This document shows positions 4,381 through 56,813 of a stretch of 64,000 bases of DNA, piece after piece. The stretch spans positions 17,896 to 81,895 of the forward strand of contig JBAZVM010000007.1 in assembly GCA_041660885.1 (NCBI GenBank), read 5' to 3'. This DNA is from Patescibacteria group bacterium (lineage in GTDB: Bacteria; Patescibacteriota; Patescibacteriia; UBA9570; JAHJKD01). Each line of letters starts with the position of its first letter. The stretch's first letter is position 1. A program made the translations under genes and the position numbers. Under the pieces are notes generated by a model. That model was not told where the DNA came from. It saw only the letters and a program-made list of their open reading frames with translations, and searched no databases.

Positions 4381-5508
4381 TTAGTTAAGAGCGATTACTC
4401 CGGGCAGCTTTTTTCCTTCCAAAAACTCCAGCATGGCGCCGCCGCCGGTGGAAATAAAAGATATTTTATCAGCCAAGCCCATGGCTTTTACCGCTTCTAC
4501 TGTTTCTCCGCCGCCGATAACGGAATAAGCCGAAGACGCGGCCACGGCTTTGGCAATGGCCAGCGTGCCTTTGGCAAACTCTTCTTCTTCAAATATGCCC
4601 ATGGGGCCGTTCCAAATAATTGTCTTGGCTTTGCTAATGGCTTCGTTATACAAACTTACCGTGTCTGGCCCGATATCCAAGGCCATTTCATCCGGCTCTA
4701 TTTCGCCCACGGCTTTTATTTTTAAATCCGCTTTATCTTCTATGCTTTTTGAAACAATAACATCTTCAGGCAAGCGCAGTTTATTGCTTAGTAAATCTTT
4801 TACCGTATCGGTTAAATCGGCTTCTACCAAAGATTTTCCCAGTTTATGATTCTGCGCCAACAAAACCGTGTTGGCCAAAGCTCCGCCCAATAGTAAATAT
4901 TCTACTTTGGGCAATAAATTTTTAATCAGACCAATCTTGGTGGAAATTTTCGCGCCACCGATAATGGCAACGATTGGTTTCTCCGGATTATTCAATACCT
5001 TTTGCAAATTATTAACTTCCTTTTCCATGAGCAAGCCCGCGGCATGGGGCAATAAACGCGCCACGCCTTCGGTGGAAGCGTGCGCCCGGTGCGCCGTGCC
5101 AAAGGCGTCGTTTACATAGCAATCGCCCAAGGCGGCTAGCTGTTTACAAAAAACGGGATCATTCTTTTCCTCACCAGCATAAAAACGAATATTTTCCAGC
5201 AAAACTATTTTTCCTTCTGGCACGGTTAAATCTTTGCTATAGGAAACATGCTCGCCCAATAACTCATGCAATTTTAAAGAGACCGGTTCCAAGCGCATGT
5301 CTTCGTTTACCTTGCCCTTGGGCCTTTTAAAATGCGCCATGATAATTATTTGTTTGGCGTTTCTTTTTATCAGCTCCTTTATAGTCGGCAATGCTTCTTC
5401 GATTCTAGTGGCATCTTTAACTTTTTTGTTTTCATCTAGCGGCACGTTGAAATCCACGCGCAGCAGGACTTTTTTTCCCTCCACGTTCAAATCTTTTAAG
5501 GTCTTCAT
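4381..5508 (-). CDS. pgk: phosphoglycerate kinase
   Basis: 375 aa with LLRVDFNVPL, NDAFGTAHRAHAS and STGGGAMLEFLEGK motifs. Adjacent to eno. Confidence 0.95.
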   Translation of the reverse strand: MKTLKDLNVEGKKVLLRVDFNVPLDENKKVKDATRIEEALPTIKELIKRNAKQIIIMAHFKRPKGKVNEDMRLEPVSLKLHELLGEHVSYSKDLTVPEGKIVLLENIRFYAGEEKNDPVFCKQLAALGDCYVNDAFGTAHRAHASTEGVARLLPHAAGLLMEKEVNNLQKVLNNPEKPIVAIIGGAKISTKIGLIKNLLPKVEYLLLGGALANTVLLAQNHKLGKSLVEADLTDTVKDLLSNKLRLPEDVIVSKSIEDKADLKIKAVGEIEPDEMALDIGPDTVSLYNEAISKAKTIIWNGPMGIFEEEEFAKGTLAIAKAVAASSAYSVIGGGETVEAVKAMGLADKISFISTGGGAMLEFLEGKKLPGVIALN

Positions 5509-5582: not shown

Positions 5583-8450
5583 TTATTTTTTAATATTTTT
5601 TTGCTCTATGGGAATTTTGGCGTTGAAAGTGGAACCTTTGCCCAAGCCCTTGGACTCCGCCCAAATTTTTCCGCCATGGCCTTCCACGATTTTCTTGGCA
5701 ATGAAAAGGCCCAGGCCAGCGCCATTGGGGTTTACTTTCATCATGCCGTCTCCGCGCACAAATTTATTAAACAGCTTGGGCGCTTCTTTCGGGTTTATGC
5801 CGATGCCCGTATCTTTCACGGAAATCAGCACATGGCCATCCAGCTTTTTTAAGCTTAATTCGATTTGGCCTTTATCCGTATATTTAATGGCGTTGTCTAC
5901 CAAGTTTAAAATGACGTCTTGAATTTTATCCATATCCACTGTTACTTCGGGAATGGTCTGTTCCGGTTCGTTAAGAATCAGCTTAATATTCTTTTTATCG
6001 GCCGTGGGTTTTAATTCGTGAAGCTGCCTGGCAGATACTTCCACCAAATTGGCCTTGGCCCAAGAAAAGTTGAACCTGCCCGCTTCTATTCTGGCAATAT
6101 TCAAGAAGAGATTCACCATGCGGATAAGCCGGCGAGAAGCATCAAACACTTCTTTCATAATGGGAATTTGTTTGCGGGATAATTTTCCATAATCCCCTTC
6201 TATGATCATGGAAAGGTAGCCCATAATGCCGGAAAGCGGGGTGCGCAACTGATGGCTGGTGATGGACATAAATTCCGATTTCGCGGTGTCCAATTCTTTC
6301 AAATGTTCGTTTACTTCTATTAATTTTTTATTGATTTCTTTTACTTTGTTGTAAACTTCGGCGCGCTCCAGAGCCAAACCCATTTGGTTGGCCACCACGC
6401 TTAACAAACGCAAATCGTCTTGGGATAAATCTTCCTTAGCTTTAAGCAAACTGAAATGGATTACACCCAATACTCTATCGCCGGCTATCAGCGGATAAAC
6501 CATACCGGTTTTCATGCGCGGTTTTAGGCTGTCTATTTTCTTTACCAAAACCGCCGGCAACGGAGGCGATAAGAAATCCGAAAGCCTGGAAGAAATTTGC
6601 TCTTTTCTTTGTATAACGGCTTTAGCCAATAAATTGTCGCCATCCACGATAGACAAACAGTATTTGGATAAATCTTTTCCGACCAAATTAAAAATTGCTT
6701 CCGCTTCGCTGGTGTTCATGGAAATGGATTTGCCGATCAATTGCTTGCCATCCGTGCTTGTTAAGGCCAGCAAAGCCGTGCTACAAAAGGGAATGTCTTC
6801 GGGAATTTCATTGATAATGTTTTGGCTGATTTGGTCTATTTCCAAAGTGGATAAAATGGTGTTGGAAAATTTCTGCAAAGTATTCAAGGAAGAATTGCGT
6901 TCCGCCAAGAATACGTTGGTTTGTTTTAAAGCCACATTGGCTTTTTTTAAATTCTTCGTGGCGCGTTCCACTTCTTTCTGCAACTTCACATTGAACTTCT
7001 GCGCTTCCTGATACAATTTGGCTTTTTCCAAAGAGGTGGCCAATTGCGGGGAAACCACTTCCAAGAAATGAATGTCTTCATTGGTAAAAACATCTCCGCT
7101 GCTTTTCGCGGCCATTAATATCAAAGCGGAAATATTTTTATCCTTGAAAACCGGGGTAACCAAAGCCGCGTTCAAACCGTTTATTTCGGCCAATATTTTT
7201 TCTATTTTTTTGGCTTCCACTTCATCCGGCATGTCGTACATCATTCTTTCCAACTCGTCGTAAACTATAATATCTTTATGCTCGGTTAAATATTTCACCA
7301 AAGCCGAGGAAATGGTCTTTTTTTGCTGGAGCTGTTTCTTTTTTCTGTTCCTCTTTAAAATATTCCCGTTAATTTCTTCGTATTCCTGATAATCTAAAAA
7401 ATCATTATCCGGAGAGGTAATGAGCACGCGCACCTTTTTTATTTTTAAATTATCCTCCAACTGGCTCTGCGTTTCCAGCACAATCTTGCGCACGGACATT
7501 TCTTCCGAAAGCGTTTTTGTCAGCTTCCTTAGAACCTCATCGTAATCTATCTTGCCTTTAAAAAATATTTTATCCGTAATCTTGGCCAAGAACGCCTTTA
7601 GCGGATCCAACAATAATACTATTAAAACCGAAGCCACTATCCAAGCAATGTATTTGTTGATTCCCGGAGTATCGGCAAAGAATATGGCAGCCAAAAGGGA
7701 CACCAGCACAAATGTGGCGGTGACGATAAAGGTCATGATAAAGAAGACGAGAGAACGAGTGATGATGAAAGAAACATTCATCAAACGGTAGCGGATGATG
7801 GCAAATACGGTGAATCCTCCCATGAATAAGGCTAATATCTGCCCAAGCCAATTGAATACAAAATTACCCATCCATGGCATTATCAAATTGGTAGACATAG
7901 CGAAATTTGAGGCTAAAAAATAACCCCAAAATACATATTTAATCTGGGATTTCTCTGCTGGCGAATATTGTTTTGAAAAATATTTTCTTAATAAATTAAT
8001 TAACCCTAAACTGAAGTAGCCGCTAATATATAAAGCATATAAATAATAAAGAGATCCAAAATCTATAAATTTTTCTTCACCAGGTATAAAAGCCACATTC
8101 TCAATAATATAATCCGGTAAAATAATTAAAATTATTAATAGTATCTGTGGTATGAAAATCAATAGGGTTCTTAAAAAGCTTCTTTTTCCTTTTGGAAAAA
8201 TAAAAGTAAAGTAAACAAAAGGGCTGGCAGTAAATGTAGCGGCTATGTATAGAACTCTGCACCAAAAAACAGATGCTTCTACAGTAGTAGCGGCTCTATA
8301 AAGAATCATTGATAATACCCAAAAAATAACTCCAATAACTACAAAGAAATATGCGATATTGGTAATTTTTCTGGAACGGGCAAGAAGTAAATATGCTAAA
8401 AAAATATTAAAACAGACTACAATGACCAGTATAATATTAATTGCATCCAT
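5583..8450 (-). CDS. sensor histidine kinase (N-terminal 7TM receptor domain, GAF-like regions, HisKA, HATPase_c)
   Basis: 955 aa with a multi-TM N-terminus. H-box FMSITSHQLRTPLS. ATPase motifs NLVDNAIKYT, DTGIGI and GAGLGLFIAKKIVEGHGG. Confidence 0.85.
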   Translation of the reverse strand: MDAINIILVIVVCFNIFLAYLLLARSRKITNIAYFFVVIGVIFWVLSMILYRAATTVEASVFWCRVLYIAATFTASPFVYFTFIFPKGKRSFLRTLLIFIPQILLIILIILPDYIIENVAFIPGEEKFIDFGSLYYLYALYISGYFSLGLINLLRKYFSKQYSPAEKSQIKYVFWGYFLASNFAMSTNLIMPWMGNFVFNWLGQILALFMGGFTVFAIIRYRLMNVSFIITRSLVFFIMTFIVTATFVLVSLLAAIFFADTPGINKYIAWIVASVLIVLLLDPLKAFLAKITDKIFFKGKIDYDEVLRKLTKTLSEEMSVRKIVLETQSQLEDNLKIKKVRVLITSPDNDFLDYQEYEEINGNILKRNRKKKQLQQKKTISSALVKYLTEHKDIIVYDELERMMYDMPDEVEAKKIEKILAEINGLNAALVTPVFKDKNISALILMAAKSSGDVFTNEDIHFLEVVSPQLATSLEKAKLYQEAQKFNVKLQKEVERATKNLKKANVALKQTNVFLAERNSSLNTLQKFSNTILSTLEIDQISQNIINEIPEDIPFCSTALLALTSTDGKQLIGKSISMNTSEAEAIFNLVGKDLSKYCLSIVDGDNLLAKAVIQRKEQISSRLSDFLSPPLPAVLVKKIDSLKPRMKTGMVYPLIAGDRVLGVIHFSLLKAKEDLSQDDLRLLSVVANQMGLALERAEVYNKVKEINKKLIEVNEHLKELDTAKSEFMSITSHQLRTPLSGIMGYLSMIIEGDYGKLSRKQIPIMKEVFDASRRLIRMVNLFLNIARIEAGRFNFSWAKANLVEVSARQLHELKPTADKKNIKLILNEPEQTIPEVTVDMDKIQDVILNLVDNAIKYTDKGQIELSLKKLDGHVLISVKDTGIGINPKEAPKLFNKFVRGDGMMKVNPNGAGLGLFIAKKIVEGHGGKIWAESKGLGKGSTFNAKIPIEQKNIKK

Positions 8451-8522
8451 ATAATTATTTTGTATTTATTATTTTTTCAACCTTAGAGAATTTAACTATA
8501 ATATTATAACAGATTTTTCCTA

Positions 8523-8561
8523 AAACTAAAAGAAGACTTGTTTCCAGCCAAACAAGTCTTC
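8523..8561 (-). terminator. intrinsic terminator of the GC-rich 2-gene unit
   Basis: On the minus strand GAAGACTTGTTT-ggctgg-AAACAAGTCTTC is followed by TTTTAGTTTTAG. It lies 35 nt after the 8596 stop. Confidence 0.7.
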
Positions 8562-8595
8562 GTTCCCCAAGCGCAGCATGCTGTCGCATCCGCAC

Positions 8596-9636
8596 TCAGG
8601 GCTTCTCCGCCTTCTTTTCGCGCACGTTGTCGTAGTGCGCTACCAGAAGGGGAATAAACCCGAGGTGAGCCGCGATCTCCGCGAACTCACCCATGTCTTG
8701 GAAACCATTGCGACCATTCCCGTTGGCCGCAACAGTAACCACCGCTTCCCACACACAACCCGGAAGCCAGTTGGCCTTATAACCGGGAAGGGCGGGACTA
8801 AAAGCGAACCCAGGAAGAGAGATGGCCACCTTGTACAAGTGGCACCCTCGAGCTCGAACGAGTTCGCACAGCCAGCTTGGAATCTGGGGGTGCGTATCGT
8901 CGAGCACTTTGGTGCCCTTCGCAAGATGTGGCACACAACTCTCGAATTGTTCACCTTCGGCGGTGAGCACGACGACCACCTGGCATTTCTCCAACCGGCT
9001 GGGGTCGGAGGTGCGAGTGACGCCGCCGTCGTACTGTTCTTCTTTGAAACGCTGATCGAGGGCTACGATGTTCTGGTAGCCCAACTCCTTGAGCCGCTCG
9101 ATCAACCGAGAACCAGAGTAACCACCCCCACCAACCACCGCCAGTTGTTTCATGCGGTGGATCTCGTGGCGTGCATATACCATGTGCACGCCCTGAGAAA
9201 TGGTGTGGATGGTTCCTCGAACGCCGTCCACGAATGGATGGGCGTTCATATCGTGTCCGTGCCGCGCCAAAATACCCGGCATGCGCCCGGCAATGGCCAC
9301 CTTGGTCTCCGAAGAGATTCGGGCAGCCGTATACCGAAGCGCACCGTACAGACGCGCCGCCTCAGAGGGCTCCGCCTCCGCCTGCTGTGTGGAGATCATT
9401 GTCCCGAAGTAGAGACCTCCCCCGATGAACCCAAGCGGGAACACCGTTGGAAAGATCCTTTTCGCGATGCCGATCGTCCACGCAGGGAAGTAGCCCTTTG
9501 TGTCTTCGGGTGTACCGGGGTACACCACGAAGATGAAGGGCCACTGCCGCTGTCGGAAGATGTGCCACCCCAGCAGGAGGGTGACCATCTGTACGAACCG
9601 GAACATGGTCCGGTTCAGACGCCGTAGCGTCCTCAT
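8596..9636 (-). CDS. NAD(P)-binding oxidoreductase, acyl-ACP-reductase / shikimate-DH-like family (GC-rich island 1)
   Basis: 346 aa. Rossmann motif VVGGGGYSGSRLIERLKELGY. N-terminal FIFVVYPGTPEDTKGYFP and the overall layout resemble cyanobacterial acyl-ACP reductase-type proteins (from memory, not searched). Hydrophobic N-terminus. SD GGAGGTG lies 4 nt before the ATG. The antisense 349-aa track ORF is rejected. Confidence 0.6.
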   Translation of the reverse strand: MRTLRRLNRTMFRFVQMVTLLLGWHIFRQRQWPFIFVVYPGTPEDTKGYFPAWTIGIAKRIFPTVFPLGFIGGGLYFGTMISTQQAEAEPSEAARLYGALRYTAARISSETKVAIAGRMPGILARHGHDMNAHPFVDGVRGTIHTISQGVHMVYARHEIHRMKQLAVVGGGGYSGSRLIERLKELGYQNIVALDQRFKEEQYDGGVTRTSDPSRLEKCQVVVVLTAEGEQFESCVPHLAKGTKVLDDTHPQIPSWLCELVRARGCHLYKVAISLPGFAFSPALPGYKANWLPGCVWEAVVTVAANGNGRNGFQDMGEFAEIAAHLGFIPLLVAHYDNVREKKAEKP

Positions 9637-9673
9637 GGTGCACCTCCAATGTTGTGGGTAGCGAGTTGAGACA

Positions 9674-9835
9674 TCACGTGATGGCGAGCATCACCGCAAT
9701 GAACGCCGTAACCGCCAGCAATGCAAGCACTGCCACCGGCCAGACGCCAAGCAATGGTGCCCACCAGGGGAGATTCCGCATCTCCTCCAACTTATCACGG
9801 ATGTCCGTGGTTTCATCCGGCGACAACGGGGCCAT
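9674..9835 (-). CDS. small membrane protein (53 aa), first gene of GC-rich island 1
   Basis: Below the track size cut-off. My translation is MAPLSPDETTDIRDKLEEMRNLPWWAPLLGVWPVAVLALLAVTAFIAVMLAIT. SD AAGGAGG lies 5 nt upstream. There is one C-terminal TM helix. The stop is 38 nt before the next start. Confidence 0.5.
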   Translation of the reverse strand: MAPLSPDETTDIRDKLEEMRNLPWWAPLLGVWPVAVLALLAVTAFIAVMLAIT

Positions 9836-10030
9836 GATGCCCTCCTTCTTTTTGCGCTACTTACTCCTTGTTGATTTCCTGTTTCTTCGTCTTGGGAACG
9901 AACTTTGAAACAGGAAGTGGGTTGAATTGCCTCCCAAGGGATAGGGAGGGCTTCTCTGTGAACTATTTAAATGTACTATCCCACAGTGAAAAAGCGGTAT
10001 TGAAGCACTACAAAAATTTCTTTGTATAAC

Positions 10031-15033: not shown

Positions 15034-15127
15034 TTTTAAGACGGCGCTATTATTTATAATCTCTATTTTAACCAATATATACAAGCTTTTTCTTAAATAT
15101 TTGTTTATTTTTAGAGACGGCGCTGGT
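15034..15127 (+). promoter_or_regulatory. pair of 7-4-7 palindromes (locus 2), second abuts the -35 of the cassette promoter
   Basis: Sites at 15034-15051 (TTTTAAGACGGCGCTATT) and 15110-15127 (TTTAGAGACGGCGCTGGT). A third half-like copy TTGACGGCTCT lies at 15131-15141. Confidence 0.55.
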
Positions 15128-15130
15128 TGA

Positions 15131-15159
15131 TTGACGGCTCTATAAAATCATCATATCAT
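15131..15159 (+). promoter_or_regulatory. sigma70-like promoter of GC-rich cassette A
   Basis: TTGACG (15131-15136), 17-nt spacer, TATCAT (15154-15159), about 70 nt before the ATG at 15231. Confidence 0.4.
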
Positions 15160-15230
15160 CCCTTTGTCTTTCTAGTCCAGATGTCCTGGGCAAGAAAGCG
15201 TTATCACACGCAACTCAAGGAAACACGCCA

Positions 15231-15917
15231 ATGTTGCGCTCGTTCTTCGACACCATCATCTGCCTCGCGCTCCTCAGCGCCTGCGCCCCGACCGACACCG
15301 ACAACCAGGAGCCTCTCGAGGACACCGACAACAACGAGTACACCTACACCAACGAGCCGGCCATCGAGTCCTACCCGCTCAACCTCTCGGACAACGACTA
15401 CGGCCCCGCCCTCGACGAGGAGGATCTCTACCTCATCGAGCAGGTCTACGGCGACATGTCCAAGGAGGAGTGGGAGATGCTCCTCGACGACCTCGCAGAG
15501 CTGACCGAGGAAGAGCTGCAGGAGTGGCTGGCCATCCTCGCCGAGGATCTCAGCGAAAACTCCACCATGAAAATTGCCTCCTGCTCCGGCTACTACGGCA
15601 GCCGCATCGGCTACGGCTGGTTCCCCTACTCGAGCACCTCCACCTACCGCAACCTCTGGACCACCAACTGCTACTTCCGCGGCGCGCAGTGCGGCAAGGA
15701 CTACATCGCAAGCTTCTGGATGGGCCCGGACTACCGTGGCGACCAGAGCGACCTCGTGGCTTATGCCTCAACCACCTCGGCACGGCTCTATCTGTTCTAC
15801 AGAGGAGGATACTCGGGGGAAATCTATCAGGGCGGATCGTACTACAACTTTTACGCCTGCTGGCCATGGGAAATTGGCGGTCTCATCGACAAGGCCCAGC
15901 TCAAGCAGATCTACTGA
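15231..15917 (+). CDS. lipoprotein, acidic linker + Cys/Tyr/Gly-rich C-terminal domain (GC-rich island 3)
   Basis: 228 aa with lipobox LLSAC. Codons end almost exclusively in C/G. SD-like AAGGAAA lies 8 nt upstream. Overlapping alternate-frame track ORFs are rejected. Confidence 0.7.
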   Translation: MLRSFFDTIICLALLSACAPTDTDNQEPLEDTDNNEYTYTNEPAIESYPLNLSDNDYGPALDEEDLYLIEQVYGDMSKEEWEMLLDDLAELTEEELQEWLAILAEDLSENSTMKIASCSGYYGSRIGYGWFPYSSTSTYRNLWTTNCYFRGAQCGKDYIASFWMGPDYRGDQSDLVAYASTTSARLYLFYRGGYSGEIYQGGSYYNFYACWPWEIGGLIDKAQLKQIY

Positions 15918-15937
15918 TGATTCTGAAGATCAACGAG

Positions 15938-15991
15938 AAACGCAGGGGTAAAGAGAAGTGCTTAAACTTTACTTCTTTGCCTCTGCGTTCC
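15938..15991 (+). terminator. long bulged hairpin with conserved loop, copy A
   Basis: AAACGCAGGGGTAAAGAGAAGTGCTTAAACTTTACTTCTTTGCCTCTGCGTTCC. Near-identical to copy B (21924-21978) and related to copy C (23008-23056). Confidence 0.55.
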
Positions 15992-20831: not shown

Positions 20832-21002
20832 ATAAGCAACGAATCGACAATCTAAAAGGAAAGCTCGAGGGAAAATCGGGCAAGATCCCTACCATCTTGT
20901 TTACCCGATTCTCCCTGGGGCAACCTGGGATGCTTCTGCTCCACTCTCCGGCTGTTCGGAGGGAATGGGTATTAGCATCTAGTTCATTGGAGCGAACGAA
21001 CC

Positions 21003-21899
21003 TTGAAAACGTACATCGCCATCCTCCTGAGCCTCGCGCTCACGGGCTGCGTGCCCGAGAGCACCGACGACAACACCGAGCTCGCGTTCGACACGGCCTA
21101 CGACAACACCGAGAGCGTCGCCGACGGCAACTACACCGTCACGATCTCGGAAGACGAGGCCAAGCGCAGCGCCATGTTCGGCCTCGACGAGGACATCTAC
21201 TCAGCCACTTCTACCATCGTGGGCCCCCTCCAGTACCGCAACGAGTGGATTCCCGCGTACGAGGTCACGGTCAACGGTGGAGACCACATCATCCTCCGCT
21301 ACATCGATGGGAACGACGGCACCCTGCTCCAGGACATCGACGCCTACCACGAGATCCCGACCATGAACGAGGTCGATCTGCCGGAAGACGTCATGGCGTC
21401 CTACTACACGTCCTGCCCGTCCGGCTGGCCCCTGTGCATCGCCAACCCGTCGTCCATCACCTTCTACAGCCAGAACGACCCGAGCTGGAAGTATGACCTC
21501 CTCGGCAACAGCAGCACTTCCACCATCGGCGGATACGGCTGCCTGCTCTCGAGCTACGCCATGGAGATCTGCAAGAACGGGCACGGGTGCTACACGCCCA
21601 AGCAGCTGAACGCCTACAAGACCTGCTTCTCCGGCGATCTCGTGATCAACTCCTGCATCGCCAGCAAGGTCGGTGCCTCCTACTCCACCATCAGCCTGGC
21701 CTCGCTCTGGGGCAAGATCGCCTCCGGTGTTCCCGTGGTGGTCTACGGCAAGTCCTCCTGCATGGGCGGCAGCTACCACGCCCAGATGATCTGGGGCCAC
21801 GACGGCTCCCGCTACTGGACCAAGGACCCCTGGTACGACTGGACGAACCAGGACCAGGCCATGTGCGTGTCGTCGCCGAGCTATCGCGTCATCCACTAG
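21003..21899 (+). CDS. lipoprotein with PepSY-like domain and C-terminal papain-fold (C39-like/CHAP-like) cysteine peptidase domain (GC-rich island 4)
   Basis: 298 aa, TTG start, lipobox LALTGC. PepSY-like segment AYEVTVNGGDHIILRYIDGNDGTLL. Motif YSQNDPSWKY...IGGYGCLLSSYAM (candidate Cys) and later GGSYHAQMIWGHDG (candidate His). Codons end almost exclusively in C/G. Confidence 0.65.
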   Translation: MKTYIAILLSLALTGCVPESTDDNTELAFDTAYDNTESVADGNYTVTISEDEAKRSAMFGLDEDIYSATSTIVGPLQYRNEWIPAYEVTVNGGDHIILRYIDGNDGTLLQDIDAYHEIPTMNEVDLPEDVMASYYTSCPSGWPLCIANPSSITFYSQNDPSWKYDLLGNSSTSTIGGYGCLLSSYAMEICKNGHGCYTPKQLNAYKTCFSGDLVINSCIASKVGASYSTISLASLWGKIASGVPVVVYGKSSCMGGSYHAQMIWGHDGSRYWTKDPWYDWTNQDQAMCVSSPSYRVIH

Positions 21900-21923
21900 A
21901 GATGCACGATATGTTCGCTCACA

Positions 21924-21978
21924 AAACGCAGGGGCAAAGGAAAGTGCTTAAAACTTTACTCCTTTGCCTCTGCGTTCC
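21924..21978 (+). terminator. long bulged hairpin with conserved loop, copy B
   Basis: AAACGCAGGGGCAAAGGAAAGTGCTTAAAACTTTACTCCTTTGCCTCTGCGTTCC. Confidence 0.55.
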
Positions 21979-22008
21979 GACTCTATTTATCAATAATTAA
22001 ATAAAGCT

Positions 22009-53858: not shown

Positions 53859-53885
53859 TTAGCACTCCCCTGTCAAGAGTGCTAA
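53859..53885. promoter_or_regulatory. CIRCE operator (HrcA binding site)
   Basis: TTAGCACTC-ccctgtcaa-GAGTGCTAA, a perfect match to the consensus TTAGCACTC-N9-GAGTGCTAA, about 20 nt upstream of hrcA. Confidence 0.9.
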
Positions 53886-53891
53886 TTCTGT

Positions 53892-53928
53892 CCTCTCCCC
53901 CTAACCCCTCTCCATGTCTGGAGAGGGG
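53892..53928 (+). repeat. CCTCTCCCC hairpin repeat, copy 5
   Basis: cctctccccctaacccctctccatgtctggagagggg. Confidence 0.8.
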
Positions 53929-54020
53929 AGATTGTTATATATAAGATGATGATAAATTTTGGGGAGATGCGCGAAACGGTAGTCGTTTTGAACCGCGCGC
54001 ATCTCTTGTCCCCTCCTCAG

Positions 54021-54326
54021 TCATTCCTTCGGAATCCAGCCGTAGTCTGCGACTCGCGGCGTGTAGTAGGGACCCGCATCCGGATCCCAACACTCGGCCG
54101 CAAACTGGCCGCTTCTAGAGGGGTACAGATGAACCTGACCCCACATCCGGCGCGGCTGGAAGAAATCTGGAAAAAGGGTGACTTCCCCTTCCATCCAGAC
54201 TGCGAATCCTCGTTCTGTGGTCGTATCGAACTCGACCACACAAGCATTCGCATCTTCGTTATAGCCCCGAAGCTCCTGAGGCTTGGGGCAGCCTACTAAG
54301 AACAAAAGCACCAAAAAAAGTCTCAA
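54021..54326 (-). CDS. small lipoprotein (GC-rich island 5)
   Basis: 101 aa. TTG start with SD AGAGGTGGA just upstream. Lipobox FLVGC. GC-rich mature part. Confidence 0.55.
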   Translation of the reverse strand: MRLFLVLLFLVGCPKPQELRGYNEDANACVVEFDTTTERGFAVWMEGEVTLFPDFFQPRRMWGQVHLYPSRSGQFAAECWDPDAGPYYTPRVADYGWIPKE

Positions 54327-54383
54327 GATCCACCTCTCTCTGGTTGAAGTACGCTAACAATGTATAAGCTTATTTCACTTAAG

Positions 54384-55061
54384 TCAATCCTGATTTTTTA
54401 TGGAAAAAGGATTGAATTTGGTATGTCTATCGTAATAGTCTTCTTGCTCTTGTTTCTTTAGAAAGCCGACAATTTTGTAAGTGATCGGCGTAAATATAGT
54501 TTCCAAGCCGACTTTAAAAATATAATTGGAAATTAGAACCGTCAGCAATAAAGAAGCGGGCAAAACACCCCAAAAGGCTACGAGTACGAAAATCGCGGTA
54601 TCAAACCCCTCGCCTATTATTGTTGAGCCGATGGTGCGCAGCCATAAAAACTTGCCTTGAGTTTTTATTTTTAATTTCGCCAGAGTAAAAGAATTAGTGA
54701 ACTCGCCAACCAAATAAGCTATTAAACTCGCGGCTACTATTCTTGGAGTTAAACCTAATATAGCGTTATACGCTTCTTGATTCGGCCAATCCGCGGCAGG
54801 AGGTAGCTTGCCTACGATAATGATCGTAAGGGACATTAACAAGGCGCAAGCAAAGCCCGTCCAGATCACTCTACGCGAACGGGCATATCCGTAAACTTCG
54901 GTTAAAATATCGCCGAAAATATAACTTAAGGGAAATAAAAGCGTTCCGCCATCAAAAGTAAACGGCCCGAATAACATTATTTTCGTTGAAACGATATTGG
55001 AAATCAATAACACGGCCACGAACAGCCCAAGAATAATATCGAAATATTTATATGGTTTCAT
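54384..55061 (-). CDS. yhhQ: queuosine-precursor transporter (YhhQ/VUT family)
   Basis: 225 aa, 6 TM helices. Typical LFPLSYIFGDILTEVYGY and RTIGSTIIGEGFDT motifs. Confidence 0.8.
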   Translation of the reverse strand: MKPYKYFDIILGLFVAVLLISNIVSTKIMLFGPFTFDGGTLLFPLSYIFGDILTEVYGYARSRRVIWTGFACALLMSLTIIIVGKLPPAADWPNQEAYNAILGLTPRIVAASLIAYLVGEFTNSFTLAKLKIKTQGKFLWLRTIGSTIIGEGFDTAIFVLVAFWGVLPASLLLTVLISNYIFKVGLETIFTPITYKIVGFLKKQEQEDYYDRHTKFNPFSIKNQD

Positions 55062-55065
55062 AAAG

Positions 55066-55137
55066 CACCGGGTACGGGAATCGGACCCGTGTTATCTGGC
55101 TGAGAACCAGACGTCCTAGCCACTAGACGAACCCGGC
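55066..55137 (-). tRNA. tRNA-Glu (anticodon CUC), copy 1, atypical T-loop
   Basis: GCCGGGTTCGTCTAGTGGCTAGGACGTCTGGTTCTCAGCCAGATAACACGGGTCCGATTCCCGTACCCGGTG. The cloverleaf folds. The T-loop TCCGATT has C at position 55. The first acceptor pair is G-U. Confidence 0.7.
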
Positions 55138-55234
55138 ATATTAATAATTGTTATACTCGATAAACAAACTCGTCTCTTCTTCATCTACACTATTTTACGA
55201 TGATCAGTTCCCGTCCAACTGATCATCGTACCTC

Positions 55235-55630
55235 CTACAACGACTCTACGTTGTACATCGGCGCTCTACTGGGATCTTGAAAAAATTGTTTACAACTCAG
55301 AGGTGTAATGTACAATTCTACTCTCCGAGTTTGCCCCTCCATACTCGGTATCCATGTACATTCACCCTTGGGTCTCATTTGTTTGAATTCCGCGTTGCAC
55401 ATCGCGAGCGCTTCATTATAAGCTTCTTTGGATTTAGCCATTTTGTCCGACGCGACGAGCAAACAACATTGACCATTCTTAGGGCAATAGTAATACGGAT
55501 TCTTACCGCCCGTTGAAAACGATGGGGATGACGGTGTTTCCTCGCCGTAGATACCCGCCAAGAAAAGGAACAACACGACCACCAACATAAAAACACAAAA
55601 GCCAATAAACGTCACCCAGTTCTGCCGCAT
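55235..55630 (-). CDS. membrane-anchored Cys-rich exported protein (island 6)
   Basis: I place the start at MRQNWVTFIGF (ATG 55630-55628, SD GAGGA 4 nt upstream); an alternative ATG is at 55657. The track start 55774 would read through the tRNA. One TM helix and 6 Cys in the ectodomain. Confidence 0.5.
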   Translation of the reverse strand: MRQNWVTFIGFCVFMLVVVLFLFLAGIYGEETPSSPSFSTGGKNPYYYCPKNGQCCLLVASDKMAKSKEAYNEALAMCNAEFKQMRPKGECTWIPSMEGQTRRVELYITPLSCKQFFQDPSRAPMYNVESL

Positions 55631-55662
55631 AGTATCCTCGTTTTTTATTGGCATCATTGCCG

Positions 55663-55734
55663 CACCGAATATGGGAATCGAACCCATGCTATCTGGCTGA
55701 GAACCAGACGTCCTAGCCACTAGACGAACCCGGC
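55663..55734 (-). tRNA. tRNA-Glu (anticodon CUC), copy 2
   Basis: The 5' 45 nt are identical to copy 1. The 3' part is TAGCATGGGTTCGATTCCCATATTCGGTG, with a canonical T-loop, but the acceptor stem has three G-U pairs. Confidence 0.7.
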
Positions 55735-55790
55735 ATATAAGAGGCGCATTGTTATGCGCCTCAAAAACAAACAATTTTATTAAATATATA

Positions 55791-56813
55791 TTATTTTATA
55801 TATTTGGCAAGTTCCACGGCTTGTTCCACCAAGCGGTTGGAATAGCCCCATTCGTTATCATACCAAGCGATTACTTTTACCAAATCGCCGCCAACCACAT
55901 TGGTTAACGCCAAATCAACGATATTGGAAGCGGGATTGCCCACTACATCGGAAGAAACAATAGGTTCATCAGTAACGGTAAGAATGCCTTTATACTTCGG
56001 CTGTTCGCTGGCCTTTTTCAAGGCGGCATTCACTTCTTCTTTGGTGGTTTCTTTTTCCGTAATGAACACGATATCGGAAAGAGAACCGCAAGGCACTGGT
56101 ACGCGAATGGCCAAGCCATCGAATATACCTTTAAAATGTTTAATGGTTTTACCCACGGCTCTGGCCGCTCCGGTGGAAGTGGGCACGATGTTCAAAGCGG
56201 AAGCGCGCGCTCGGCGCATATCCCCGCTTTTATGGGAACCATCTACTAAATTTTGATCCGCGGTATAGGCGTGGATGGTGGTCATCATGGCTTTTTTTAC
56301 GCCGAATACTTCTTGCATTACTTTCATCACTGGCGCGATGCAATTGGTGGTGCAGGAAGCGTTAGAAATAATCTGTTCTGACTCATGGTCCATCTCATCT
56401 TGATTAACGCCTAAAACATAAGTGCCTACCGGGTCGTCCCCTTTGCTTGGCGCGGAAATGATCACGCGTTTGGCGCCGGCATCTAAATGCGCTTTGGCTT
56501 TTTCCTTTTTGGTAAAAAGGCCGGTGCATTCCAACACGATATCAACGCCCAATTCTTTCCAAGGAAGATCTTTGGGTTCTCTCACTGCTAATTTTTTATA
56601 TTTTTTACCGTCTACCACTAAAATATCTTCTCCTTCAGTGCTCACGGTTCCCTCGTAGGTTCCATAGACGGAATCGTACTTGAATAAATGCGCGGAATCT
56701 TGAACAGAAGATAATCCATTGATAGCTACGACTTCTACGTCGTTTCTTTTTATCGCTACTTTGAAAGCAGCTTTCCCGATACGGCCAAAGCCGTTTATGG
56801 CAATTTTCACCAT
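55791..56813 (-). CDS. gap: type I glyceraldehyde-3-phosphate dehydrogenase
   Basis: 340 aa. INGFGRIGK and the SNASCTTNC active site. Confidence 0.95.
   Translation of the reverse strand: MVKIAINGFGRIGKAAFKVAIKRNDVEVVAINGLSSVQDSAHLFKYDSVYGTYEGTVSTEGEDILVVDGKKYKKLAVREPKDLPWKELGVDIVLECTGLFTKKEKAKAHLDAGAKRVIISAPSKGDDPVGTYVLGVNQDEMDHESEQIISNASCTTNCIAPVMKVMQEVFGVKKAMMTTIHAYTADQNLVDGSHKSGDMRRARASALNIVPTSTGAARAVGKTIKHFKGIFDGLAIRVPVPCGSLSDIVFITEKETTKEEVNAALKKASEQPKYKGILTVTDEPIVSSDVVGNPASNIVDLALTNVVGGDLVKVIAWYDNEWGYSNRLVEQAVELAKYIK

Follow-up and report, generated by a model that had tools for sequence, protein, structure and literature searches.

Why does the genome of a patescibacterium carry two tRNA-Glu(CUC) genes that share an exact 49-nt repeat and bracket a single small gene? 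The genes lie in a 64,000-nt stretch of DNA (hereafter the window) from a Patescibacteria group bacterium (assembly GCA_041660885.1, contig JBAZVM010000007.1, positions 17,896–81,895 of the forward strand), and coordinates given without a locus number are window positions. We call the tRNA-Glu gene next to the Vut_1 transporter gene copy 1 and the one next to the GAPDH gene copy 2. Patescibacteria (candidate phyla radiation, CPR) have tiny genomes with few recognisable mobile elements, and their routes of gene gain are poorly understood; the locus is a clean, comparable example of single small genes entering such genomes. We found a real, well-bounded and lineage-specific insertion with a duplication of the tRNA gene, and on balance we favour the explanation that about 0.6 kb of foreign DNA recombined with the resident tRNA-Glu gene, which would have served as a region of homology or as an attachment site.

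The order on the minus strand is GAPDH, a hairpin, copy 2, an open reading frame (ORF) of 131 codons named ORF131, a 14-bp palindrome, copy 1, Vut_1, a lipoprotein ORF, and HrcA-GrpE-HSP20-DnaK. The features of the locus are:

54384–55061, minus strand: Vut_1 family queuosine-precursor transporter, the right flank (Pfam PF02592, E = 1e-53)
55065–55137, minus strand: tRNA-Glu(CUC) copy 1, the native resident gene (ARAGORN; Rfam RF00005, 55.7 bits)
55093–55141, minus strand: exact 49-nt repeat, member at copy 1 (sequence comparison)
55138–55170, minus strand: copy 1 leader, a hairpin-less diverged homologue of the copy 2 leader (anchored alignment, p ~0.002)
55142–55689, minus strand: segment bounded by the identical 49-mers (sequence comparison)
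55196–55230, minus strand: perfect 14-bp stem with a 7-nt loop, directly after the ORF131 stop codon (−20.5 kcal/mol, z = −6.6)
55235–55630, minus strand: ORF131, a 131-aa orphan with an N-terminal membrane anchor and a Cys-rich region (ORF call)
55662–55734, minus strand: tRNA-Glu(CUC) copy 2, the extra, lineage-specific copy (ARAGORN; Rfam RF00005, 55.6 bits)
55690–55738, minus strand: exact 49-nt repeat, member at copy 2 (sequence comparison)
55735–55773, minus strand: copy 2 leader, with a hairpin, downstream of GAPDH (folding, alignment)
55741–55762, minus strand: the hairpin in the copy 2 leader (−16.3 kcal/mol, z = −7.6)
55791–56813, minus strand: type I GAPDH, the left flank and synteny anchor (Pfam)

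An earlier reading of the letters alone (the sequence-only reading) had reported two tRNA-Glu(CUC) genes with a perfect 49-nt identity, and both points were confirmed by ARAGORN and by direct comparison. The two tRNA genes are offset by 597 bp. Both fold and score as tRNAs (RF00005 gathering score, 29 bits), and the single-copy orthologues of the relatives score 54.8–63.8 bits. The 49-mer is made up of 4 leader nt and tRNA positions 1–45, its identity breaks exactly at either border, and it has no further occurrence in the window. Six differences, all transitions, were found in the last 28 nt, where seven in 27 nt had been counted before. In standard numbering (copy 1/copy 2) they are 46 A/G, 50 C/U, 55 C/U, 64 G/A, 67 C/U and 68 C/U. 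They are compatible with the cloverleaf: 50–64 is a compensated T-stem pair, C-G in copy 1 and U-A in copy 2, and changes 67 and 68 give copy 2 the pairs G6.U67 and G5.U68 in addition to G1.U72, which is found in both copies. The minimum free energy of folding is −30.9 kcal/mol for copy 1 and −25.0 kcal/mol for copy 2.

To decide which copy is the resident, we compared the locus with contigs whose GAPDH is 91% to 68% identical to that of the window, plus one with a 96%-identical Vut_1. These represent seven related Patescibacteria genomes, or eight with this one (loci L081, L082, L084–86, L089, L093, L095 and L097); GAPDH homologues put the contig in Patescibacteria, near metagenome-assembled genomes labelled Kerfeldbacteria. 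The neighbourhood ScpA-ScpB-PBP5-(Sm_multidrug_ex)-GAPDH ... tRNA-Glu(CUC) ... HrcA-GrpE-HSP20-DnaK is kept in the relatives, with Vut_1 in some, and the genes around the tRNA, of which GIY-YIG and Phd/ParE were assigned by Pfam, are as follows:

L081 (GAPDH 86% identical): nothing between GAPDH and the tRNA; the contig ends 55 nt after the tRNA
L082 (82%): nothing between GAPDH and the tRNA; SBF (reverse strand) and HrcA after it
L089 (82%): a 152-aa ORF between GAPDH and the tRNA; no Vut_1 within 366 nt after it
L084–86 (75%): about 1.9 kb of small GC-rich ORFs between GAPDH and the tRNA; Vut_1 and SBF after it
L093 (68%): a GIY-YIG gene between GAPDH and the tRNA; Na/Ca exchanger and HrcA after it
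L097 (70%): a 94-aa ORF and a GIY-YIG gene between GAPDH and the tRNA; the contig ends after it
L083 + L095 (GAPDH 91%; Vut_1 96%): a Phd/ParE toxin-antitoxin pair between GAPDH and the tRNA; Vut_1 after it

Every relative has one intact tRNA-Glu(CUC) at this locus, where sequence is available (the contigs of L081, L086 and L097 stop at or shortly past the tRNA). Copy 2 was absent from all relatives examined, as was any counterpart of ORF131. The expectation that relatives would carry a single tRNA without the insert was thus borne out, but a strict empty site (both flanks and one tRNA on one contig) was not found among the relatives recovered. An exact 45-mer scan of metagenome contigs returned only a second assembly of the same organism and no empty-site allele. 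The closest relative is represented by L083 and L095, which come from the same sample and are probably adjacent, the tail of one overlapping the head of the other by 28 nt. Between the window and L095, DNA homology (88%) extends from 55140, a point 3 nt ahead of copy 1, across Vut_1; L084/L085 and L095 have kept the tRNA-Vut_1 junction.

The L095 tRNA is identical to copy 1 at 73 of 73 positions, C55 included, while only 0.56, 0.47 and 0.61 of four-fold-degenerate sites are identical to the closest relative in GAPDH, PBP and Vut_1, respectively. Because the tRNA is unchanged despite 47–61% identity at four-fold-degenerate sites, the comparison identifies copy 1 as the native gene, the orthologue of the relatives' tRNA, under strong purifying selection. 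Conversely, the 3' part of copy 2 (GCATGGGTTCGATTCCCATATTCGG) is novel, since copy 1 matches the closest relative's tRNA, and the earlier proposal that the insert supplies a replacement 3' half agrees with this. The same four-fold-site values were also used as a mosaic test of whether the two flanks have different histories; they are not clearly different and give no evidence of it. Across the genomes the tRNA sequences group by genome and not by position.

These results changed the view of which copy is unusual. The T-loop of copy 1 is UCCGAUU, and U (as pseudouridine) is near-universal at tRNA position 55, so C55 had been taken as a blemish of copy 1. The same loop is present in the native tRNA-Glu(CUC) of L095 (580–652) and L081 (7083–7155), and G1.U72 occurs in all eight genomes compared. 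The three acceptor G-U pairs ascribed to copy 2 do exist, but one of them is this shared pair and only two are extra. Judged against the relatives, C55 and G1.U72 are lineage norms, not defects, and the odd copy is copy 2; as a clade norm of tRNA-Glu(CUC) they are a small oddity for tRNA biology. In the identity set of glutamyl-tRNA synthetase (GluRS), defined by E. coli rules that may not hold for Patescibacteria, both copies have U11-A24 and U13.G22 and lack residue 47, whereas position 46 is A in copy 1 and G in copy 2. All seven relatives have A46, as does copy 1, and G46 occurs in copy 2 alone. In E. coli, GluRS identity depends to a major degree on the U13-G22:A46 triple (PMC9976931). 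Given G46 and the two extra G.U pairs, copy 2 is probably the weaker copy.

The duplication extends beyond the tRNA. The 45 nt ahead of each copy align if the tRNA start is used as anchor (GTTTGTTT ... ATAACAAT ... TATTAATAT), with a score matched by ~0.2% of composition-matched window segments or shuffles, and no homology was found downstream of the two copies (p = 0.25). The exact repeat is 49 nt long, as had been described, but homology runs on into the diverged leader. The repeated unit therefore comprises a leader of ~35–40 nt (roughly 70–75% identical, with indels), the 49 nt at 100% identity and the last 28 nt at 79%. A diverged leader within the repeat suggests that the whole leader and tRNA unit was brought in or copied. 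The copy 1 leader lacks the G+C stems that make the hairpin of the copy 2 leader, and is collinear with the native tRNA leader of L084. L081 and L082 have hairpins of the form GAGRCGC...GYCTC-TTAT, similar to the one in the leader of copy 2, ahead of their single tRNA; orthology among these hairpins was visually suggestive but statistically weak (p = 0.06–0.13), and we did not adopt it.

Between the two copies lies a single gene, as first reported, encoding a Cys-rich protein with a predicted membrane anchor. In the 31-nt gap between copy 2 and ORF131, a GAGGA Shine-Dalgarno sequence can be read 5 nt upstream of the ATG. A single-sequence AlphaFold2 model (mean pLDDT 58) predicted a transmembrane (TM) helix confidently at residues 3–28 and the remainder at low pLDDT; six Cys follow the helix. 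The perfect 14-bp stem behind the stop codon is not followed by a U-tract, its arm is unique in the window, and a 58-nt spacer separates it from copy 1. ORF131 matched no Pfam family, found only itself among 5.8 billion proteins, and had no match in a scan of viral contigs or in tblastn searches of phages and plasmids. Two candidate similarities were rejected. HMMER searches against 1.84 billion representatives gave E-values down to 1e-36, which were sums of 8–18 weak matches to T/S-rich repeat proteins and not homology, and an alignment to the small lipoprotein ORF that follows Vut_1 was gap-rich and, at 29% identity across 72 aa, unconvincing. By host codon usage its frame is the best of six, yet it scores 0.008 compared with 0.33 ± 0.10 for host genes. 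These features fit a real but putatively foreign or young gene.

The relatives also showed that this slot has received DNA more than once. The slot is conserved and tRNA-anchored, and its content differs in each of the eight genomes (GAPDH of the relatives 68–91% identical to this one); the cargo segments of the relatives have no similarity to one another or to the window. Because the cargo differs between genomes without shared similarity, the tRNA-Glu(CUC) slot is, by this comparison, a recurrent insertion hot spot in the clade. Two relatives carry partial tRNA copies that resemble attachment (att) sites. L093 (GCA_964572175.1, CAZNEH010000007.1) has at 4615–4661 a 47-nt copy of tRNA-Glu positions 27–73, 91% identical and 104 nt downstream of the intact tRNA, of the 'displaced fragment' type. 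In L097 (a contig of SRR17165147), two 54-nt direct repeats (6374–6427 and 6702–6755; 96% identical) flank the GIY-YIG gene directly upstream of the intact tRNA-Glu. Each repeat combines the leader, tRNA positions 1–8, a 32-nt G+C-rich double hairpin and tRNA positions 9–18, the hairpin element being placed between U8 and C9 of the tRNA-like fragment. Events at this slot leave whole or partial tRNA duplications and no integrase.

Several smaller observations were made at the relatives' loci. The 104-nt spacer of L093 is rich in CCCGAT/ATCGGG-type palindromes, and its GIY-YIG gene overlaps the 5' end of the tRNA. A G+C-rich hairpin motif, ACCCGCCTNNGGCGGG, occurs at L081 7195–7210, L097 6402–6417 and 6730–6745, and L001 10378–10393, and was absent from the window. 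In L081 and L097, where the flanks were read, it forms part of a double hairpin beside or inside tRNA-Glu sequences, and it is possibly a small element resembling repetitive extragenic palindromic (REP) sequences or miniature inverted-repeat transposable elements (MITEs). The slot between GAPDH and the tRNA in the closest relative (L083 2111–2198 and L095 1–579) contains a near-consensus sigma-70 promoter (TTGACA, 17 nt, TATAAT), a G+C-rich hairpin and the Phd/ParE pair. A truncated ORF at the end of L095 was guessed to be an HUH (IS200/RAYT-like) transposase, which Pfam did not confirm. Apparent strain variation among L084–L087 was a gene-calling effect, the DNA being identical.

How could such an arrangement arise? 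In the explanation that we favour, and to which we give a somewhat better than even chance, the incoming DNA would have carried its own leader, a tRNA-Glu-like sequence and one cargo gene, ORF131, and would have recombined with the resident tRNA gene, most simply by a single crossover in the identical 5' 49 nt (Campbell-type integration). The product would read GAPDH, leader, copy 2 (resident 5' part and incoming 3' part), ORF131, hairpin, incoming leader, copy 1 (incoming 5' part and resident 3' part) and Vut_1, with copy 1, native in sequence, left as the working tRNA. The enzyme may have been an integrase, either trans-acting or since lost, or the exchange may have been RecA-type homologous recombination after DNA uptake.

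A single crossover predicts a direct duplication of the whole homologous unit with a tract of perfect identity at the exchange site, and confines novel or diverged sequence between the identical tracts, with resident-type sequence outside. Indeed, the 3' part of copy 2, ORF131, the palindrome and the copy 1 leader all lie between the 49-mers, and the sequence outside is resident-like. It also predicts G.U pairs where acceptor pairs straddle the identity boundary and compensation inside the divergent part; the straddling pairs 5–68 and 6–67 are G.U, and pair 50–64, which lies wholly in the divergent part, is Watson-Crick compensated. The earlier view that perfect identity next to divergence is a crossover footprint fits with the lineage-specific insertion, the hot-spot character of the tRNA and the att-like partial copies of two relatives. 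However, tRNA positions 8–48 are invariant anyway, which weakens that argument. We see no new kind of system here but a further instance, outwardly ordinary though unusual in some of its anatomy, of the known recombination at tRNA hot spots. If the event was a Campbell-type recombination after DNA uptake, gene gain in CPR bacteria would be tied to their DNA-uptake lifestyle.

A number of results weigh against this explanation. As the sequence-only reading had stated for the insert, there is no integrase; no integrase or recombinase was detected in the insert or in 16 window ORFs scanned by Pfam (6 near the locus and 10 otherwise unannotated). Viral-contig scans with the tRNA core, the copy 2 3' half and ORF131 did not recover a donor sequence, and a 597-bp circle is far below the size of any self-mobile element known to us. 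Positions 8–48 are invariant even in comparison with L089 (82% GAPDH identity), so the split of 0/45 and 6/28 differences is not decisive; site rates from the relatives give a probability of roughly 0.01–0.2 that the 3' part would receive all six changes. In stems, C opposite G can go to U in one tolerated step. Had the donor carried A5 and A6 paired to U68 and U67, a reciprocal crossover 3' of position 6 would be expected to leave A.C mismatches in copy 1, and none are seen. The copy 1 leader resembles the native leader of L084 and so need not be foreign. The ancestor that we infer (GAPDH, hairpin leader, one tRNA, Vut_1) was not seen intact on any single contig, and the joining of L083 to L095 depends on their 28-nt overlap.

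The most serious rival is an origin in situ. Here a local event such as unequal crossing-over would have duplicated the leader and tRNA, a small cargo or a de novo ORF would have come to lie between the copies, and copy 2 would have drifted under relaxed, structure-preserving constraint, with the D-arm and anticodon-arm kept identical by selection and/or gene conversion. Homology of the leader alongside that of the tRNA is what a segmental duplication predicts, all six differences are structure-compatible transitions, and the intrinsic invariance of positions 8–48 in the clade means that the 49-nt identity needs no crossover. The ~25–30% divergence of the leaders is within neutral divergence since the split from L095, and L097 provides a precedent with its short local duplications of the leader and the 5' part of the tRNA. 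Nevertheless, at least two events would be needed, plus a separate origin for ORF131 and its hairpin, and nothing in this scenario predicts that both diverged parts (the copy 2 3' half and the copy 1 leader) face inward. It would further require six changes in copy 2 against none in copy 1 and the L095 tRNA, and a reversion at U55 of copy 2, which is the state outside the C55 clade. We consider such an origin possible but unlikely. Less likely still is a special case of the explanation that we favour, a classical genomic island in decay, in which deletions in a larger, integrase-encoding element left ORF131 between attL and attR. Near-complete decay does occur at this site, as the displaced 3' fragment of L093 shows; a regenerated target with a displaced fragment is part of the Islander model (PMC4383910), and degenerate remnants with partial tRNAs are known for tycheposon islands (bioRxiv 10.1101/2020.12.28.424599). 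On the other hand, no integrase fragment was detected in the ORF list of the insert or by Pfam on the scanned window ORFs, the distal repeat is a complete tRNA with its leader instead of a 3' fragment, the exact identity is in the 5' part and not the 3' part, and ORF131 has no phage, plasmid or viral-contig homologue. A bolder version, in which the 597-bp unit (leader, tRNA-Glu, cargo and palindrome) is a minimal, integron-like cassette without an integrase that moves between Patescibacteria via tRNA-Glu(CUC), with the L093 and L097 footprints as other products and possibly a trans-acting nuclease or recombinase, appears to us a long shot; the locus would gain wider weight if that reading proved general.

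The two remaining alternatives are more remote. An ancestral tandem pair, kept by selection because it boosts GAG decoding for GC-rich acquired genes and lost in all sampled relatives, is very improbable. The codon preference on which it builds is real: as had been proposed, GAG is favoured in island genes and disfavoured in the backbone, accounting for 68% of the Glu codons of four GC-rich island ORFs but for 21% of those of 54 backbone ORFs. Both copies also have scores typical of tRNAs. Conservation of the pair in relatives had been named as an observation that would speak against an insertion; the pair occurs in no relative, seven of which have a single intact copy, and the tRNAs cluster by genome instead of by position. 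ORF131 itself is not GAG-rich (3 of its 9 Glu codons), and copy 2 has G46 at the E. coli GluRS identity position (PMC9976931). With a single copy of the tRNA already present in all relatives, GAG not enriched in ORF131 and copy 2 the less canonical of the two, an adaptive dosage link between the extra tRNA-Glu and GC-rich genes is unsupported. An assembly artefact, in which strain variants that share a 49-nt repeat were wrongly joined or collapsed there, is scarcely credible. Although contigs often end at or inside this tRNA (L081, L086, L088, L096 and L097), an independent Joint Genome Institute (JGI) assembly, Ga0172379_10328351 (L088, found by the exact 45-mer scan), is 100% identical to window positions 55123–56135 and reads from GAPDH through copy 2, ORF131 and the leader, then 15 nt into copy 1. 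Furthermore, 49 nt is shorter than a sequencing read, so the repeat is spanned by reads.

Comparison with known systems places the locus closest, by analogy, to degraded tRNA-proximal islands such as the tycheposon islands and to generic Campbell-type integration. By the Islander definition, integrase-mediated insertion into a tRNA gene leaves a regenerated tRNA and a displaced fragment (PMC4383910). Like islands integrated in tRNA genes, the locus has lineage-specific DNA between direct tRNA repeats, keeps an intact tRNA, is hit repeatedly at the same tRNA in relatives and has an upstream copy that looks like a hybrid whose 3' part was replaced. Relatives with a single tRNA-Glu(CUC) lack ORF131, as expected of an Islander-type island, although no strict empty site with both flanks on a single contig was recovered. 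The locus departs from such islands in lacking an integrase, in the small size of the insert (~0.5 kb, one gene), in a second repeat that spans a complete tRNA and its leader, and in the position of the perfect identity, which is in the 5' two-thirds of the tRNA. The Prochlorococcus tycheposon islands share a streamlined genome, a fixed tRNA-adjacent slot, lineage-specific small cargo and leftover tRNA fragments (bioRxiv 10.1101/2020.12.28.424599), but neither this locus nor those of the relatives showed a recombinase or replication module of tycheposon type, and the cargo here lies mostly on the 5' side of the tRNA. Campbell-type or homology-facilitated illegitimate recombination would account for the flanking direct duplication, chimeric copies and perfect-identity tract; it is a general mechanism and not a family, and a circular intermediate or competence in this organism would be hypothetical. 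The size of ~0.5 kb, the single ORF followed by a strong palindrome, and the lack of a recombinase within the unit resemble integron cassettes, which differ in their attC-type imperfect palindromes with R/L boxes, IntI/attI and arrays, none of which are seen here, where the repeats are tRNA genes; the locus is not such a cassette. Nor is it a transposon, insertion sequence or MITE, with no terminal inverted repeats at the insert ends and a flanking repeat that is a ~110-nt leader and tRNA unit instead of a short target-site duplication. Actinomycete integrative elements (e.g., SLP1 at tRNA-Tyr) have att identity over the whole tRNA gene and likewise show full-length tRNA sequence at both ends, but they exceed 10 kb and encode int and xis.

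The copy 1-Vut_1 junction is also present in a second assembly, L096 1–60 (Ga0172379_10264935), which begins inside copy 1 and differs from it at G57T, C62T and C68G (T-arm and acceptor) and at a mismatched tip. Errors from low coverage where the contig ends are the most likely source of these mismatches; a degenerate allele is less likely.

The Vut_1 gene shows features of its own. Its start codon lies 0–3 nt past the 3' end of tRNA-Glu in three genomes (window 55061–55065, where copy 1 ends 3 nt ahead of the ATG; L084 9000–9001; L095 652–656), leaving no space for a separate ribosome-binding site, and from this spacing the tRNA and the transporter are probably co-transcribed. Vut_1 is 65–72% identical to proteins of Zixibacteria, cyanobacteria, Chloroflexota, Bacteroidales and DPANN archaea (loci L001–L080), and this unusually high cross-phylum conservation suggests frequent horizontal transfer. 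As a synteny anchor the transporter is too widely shared and was abandoned: it retrieved 80 loci from many phyla, and 0 of the 30 scanned had an adjacent tRNA-Glu. Downstream of Vut_1, a lipoprotein ORF (54021–54326, minus strand; lipobox LVGC) lies in a GC-rich patch at 53862–54339. Its L095 homologue (1388–1753, 56% GC) is 43% identical, compared with 96% for the adjacent Vut_1, which indicates that the lipoprotein gene evolves very fast.

Elsewhere in the window, three sharply bounded G+C-rich islands (8512–9959, 15109–15952 and 20840–22000; 57–59% GC compared with 41% in the backbone) had no flanking direct repeats that we could find. Each holds one ORF with a GC3 of 0.70–0.94 and GAG-biased Glu codons. 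Two of these ORFs have lipoprotein-like N-termini (LLSAC and LALTGC) and no Pfam family, and the third gave weak, sub-threshold NAD-binding matches.

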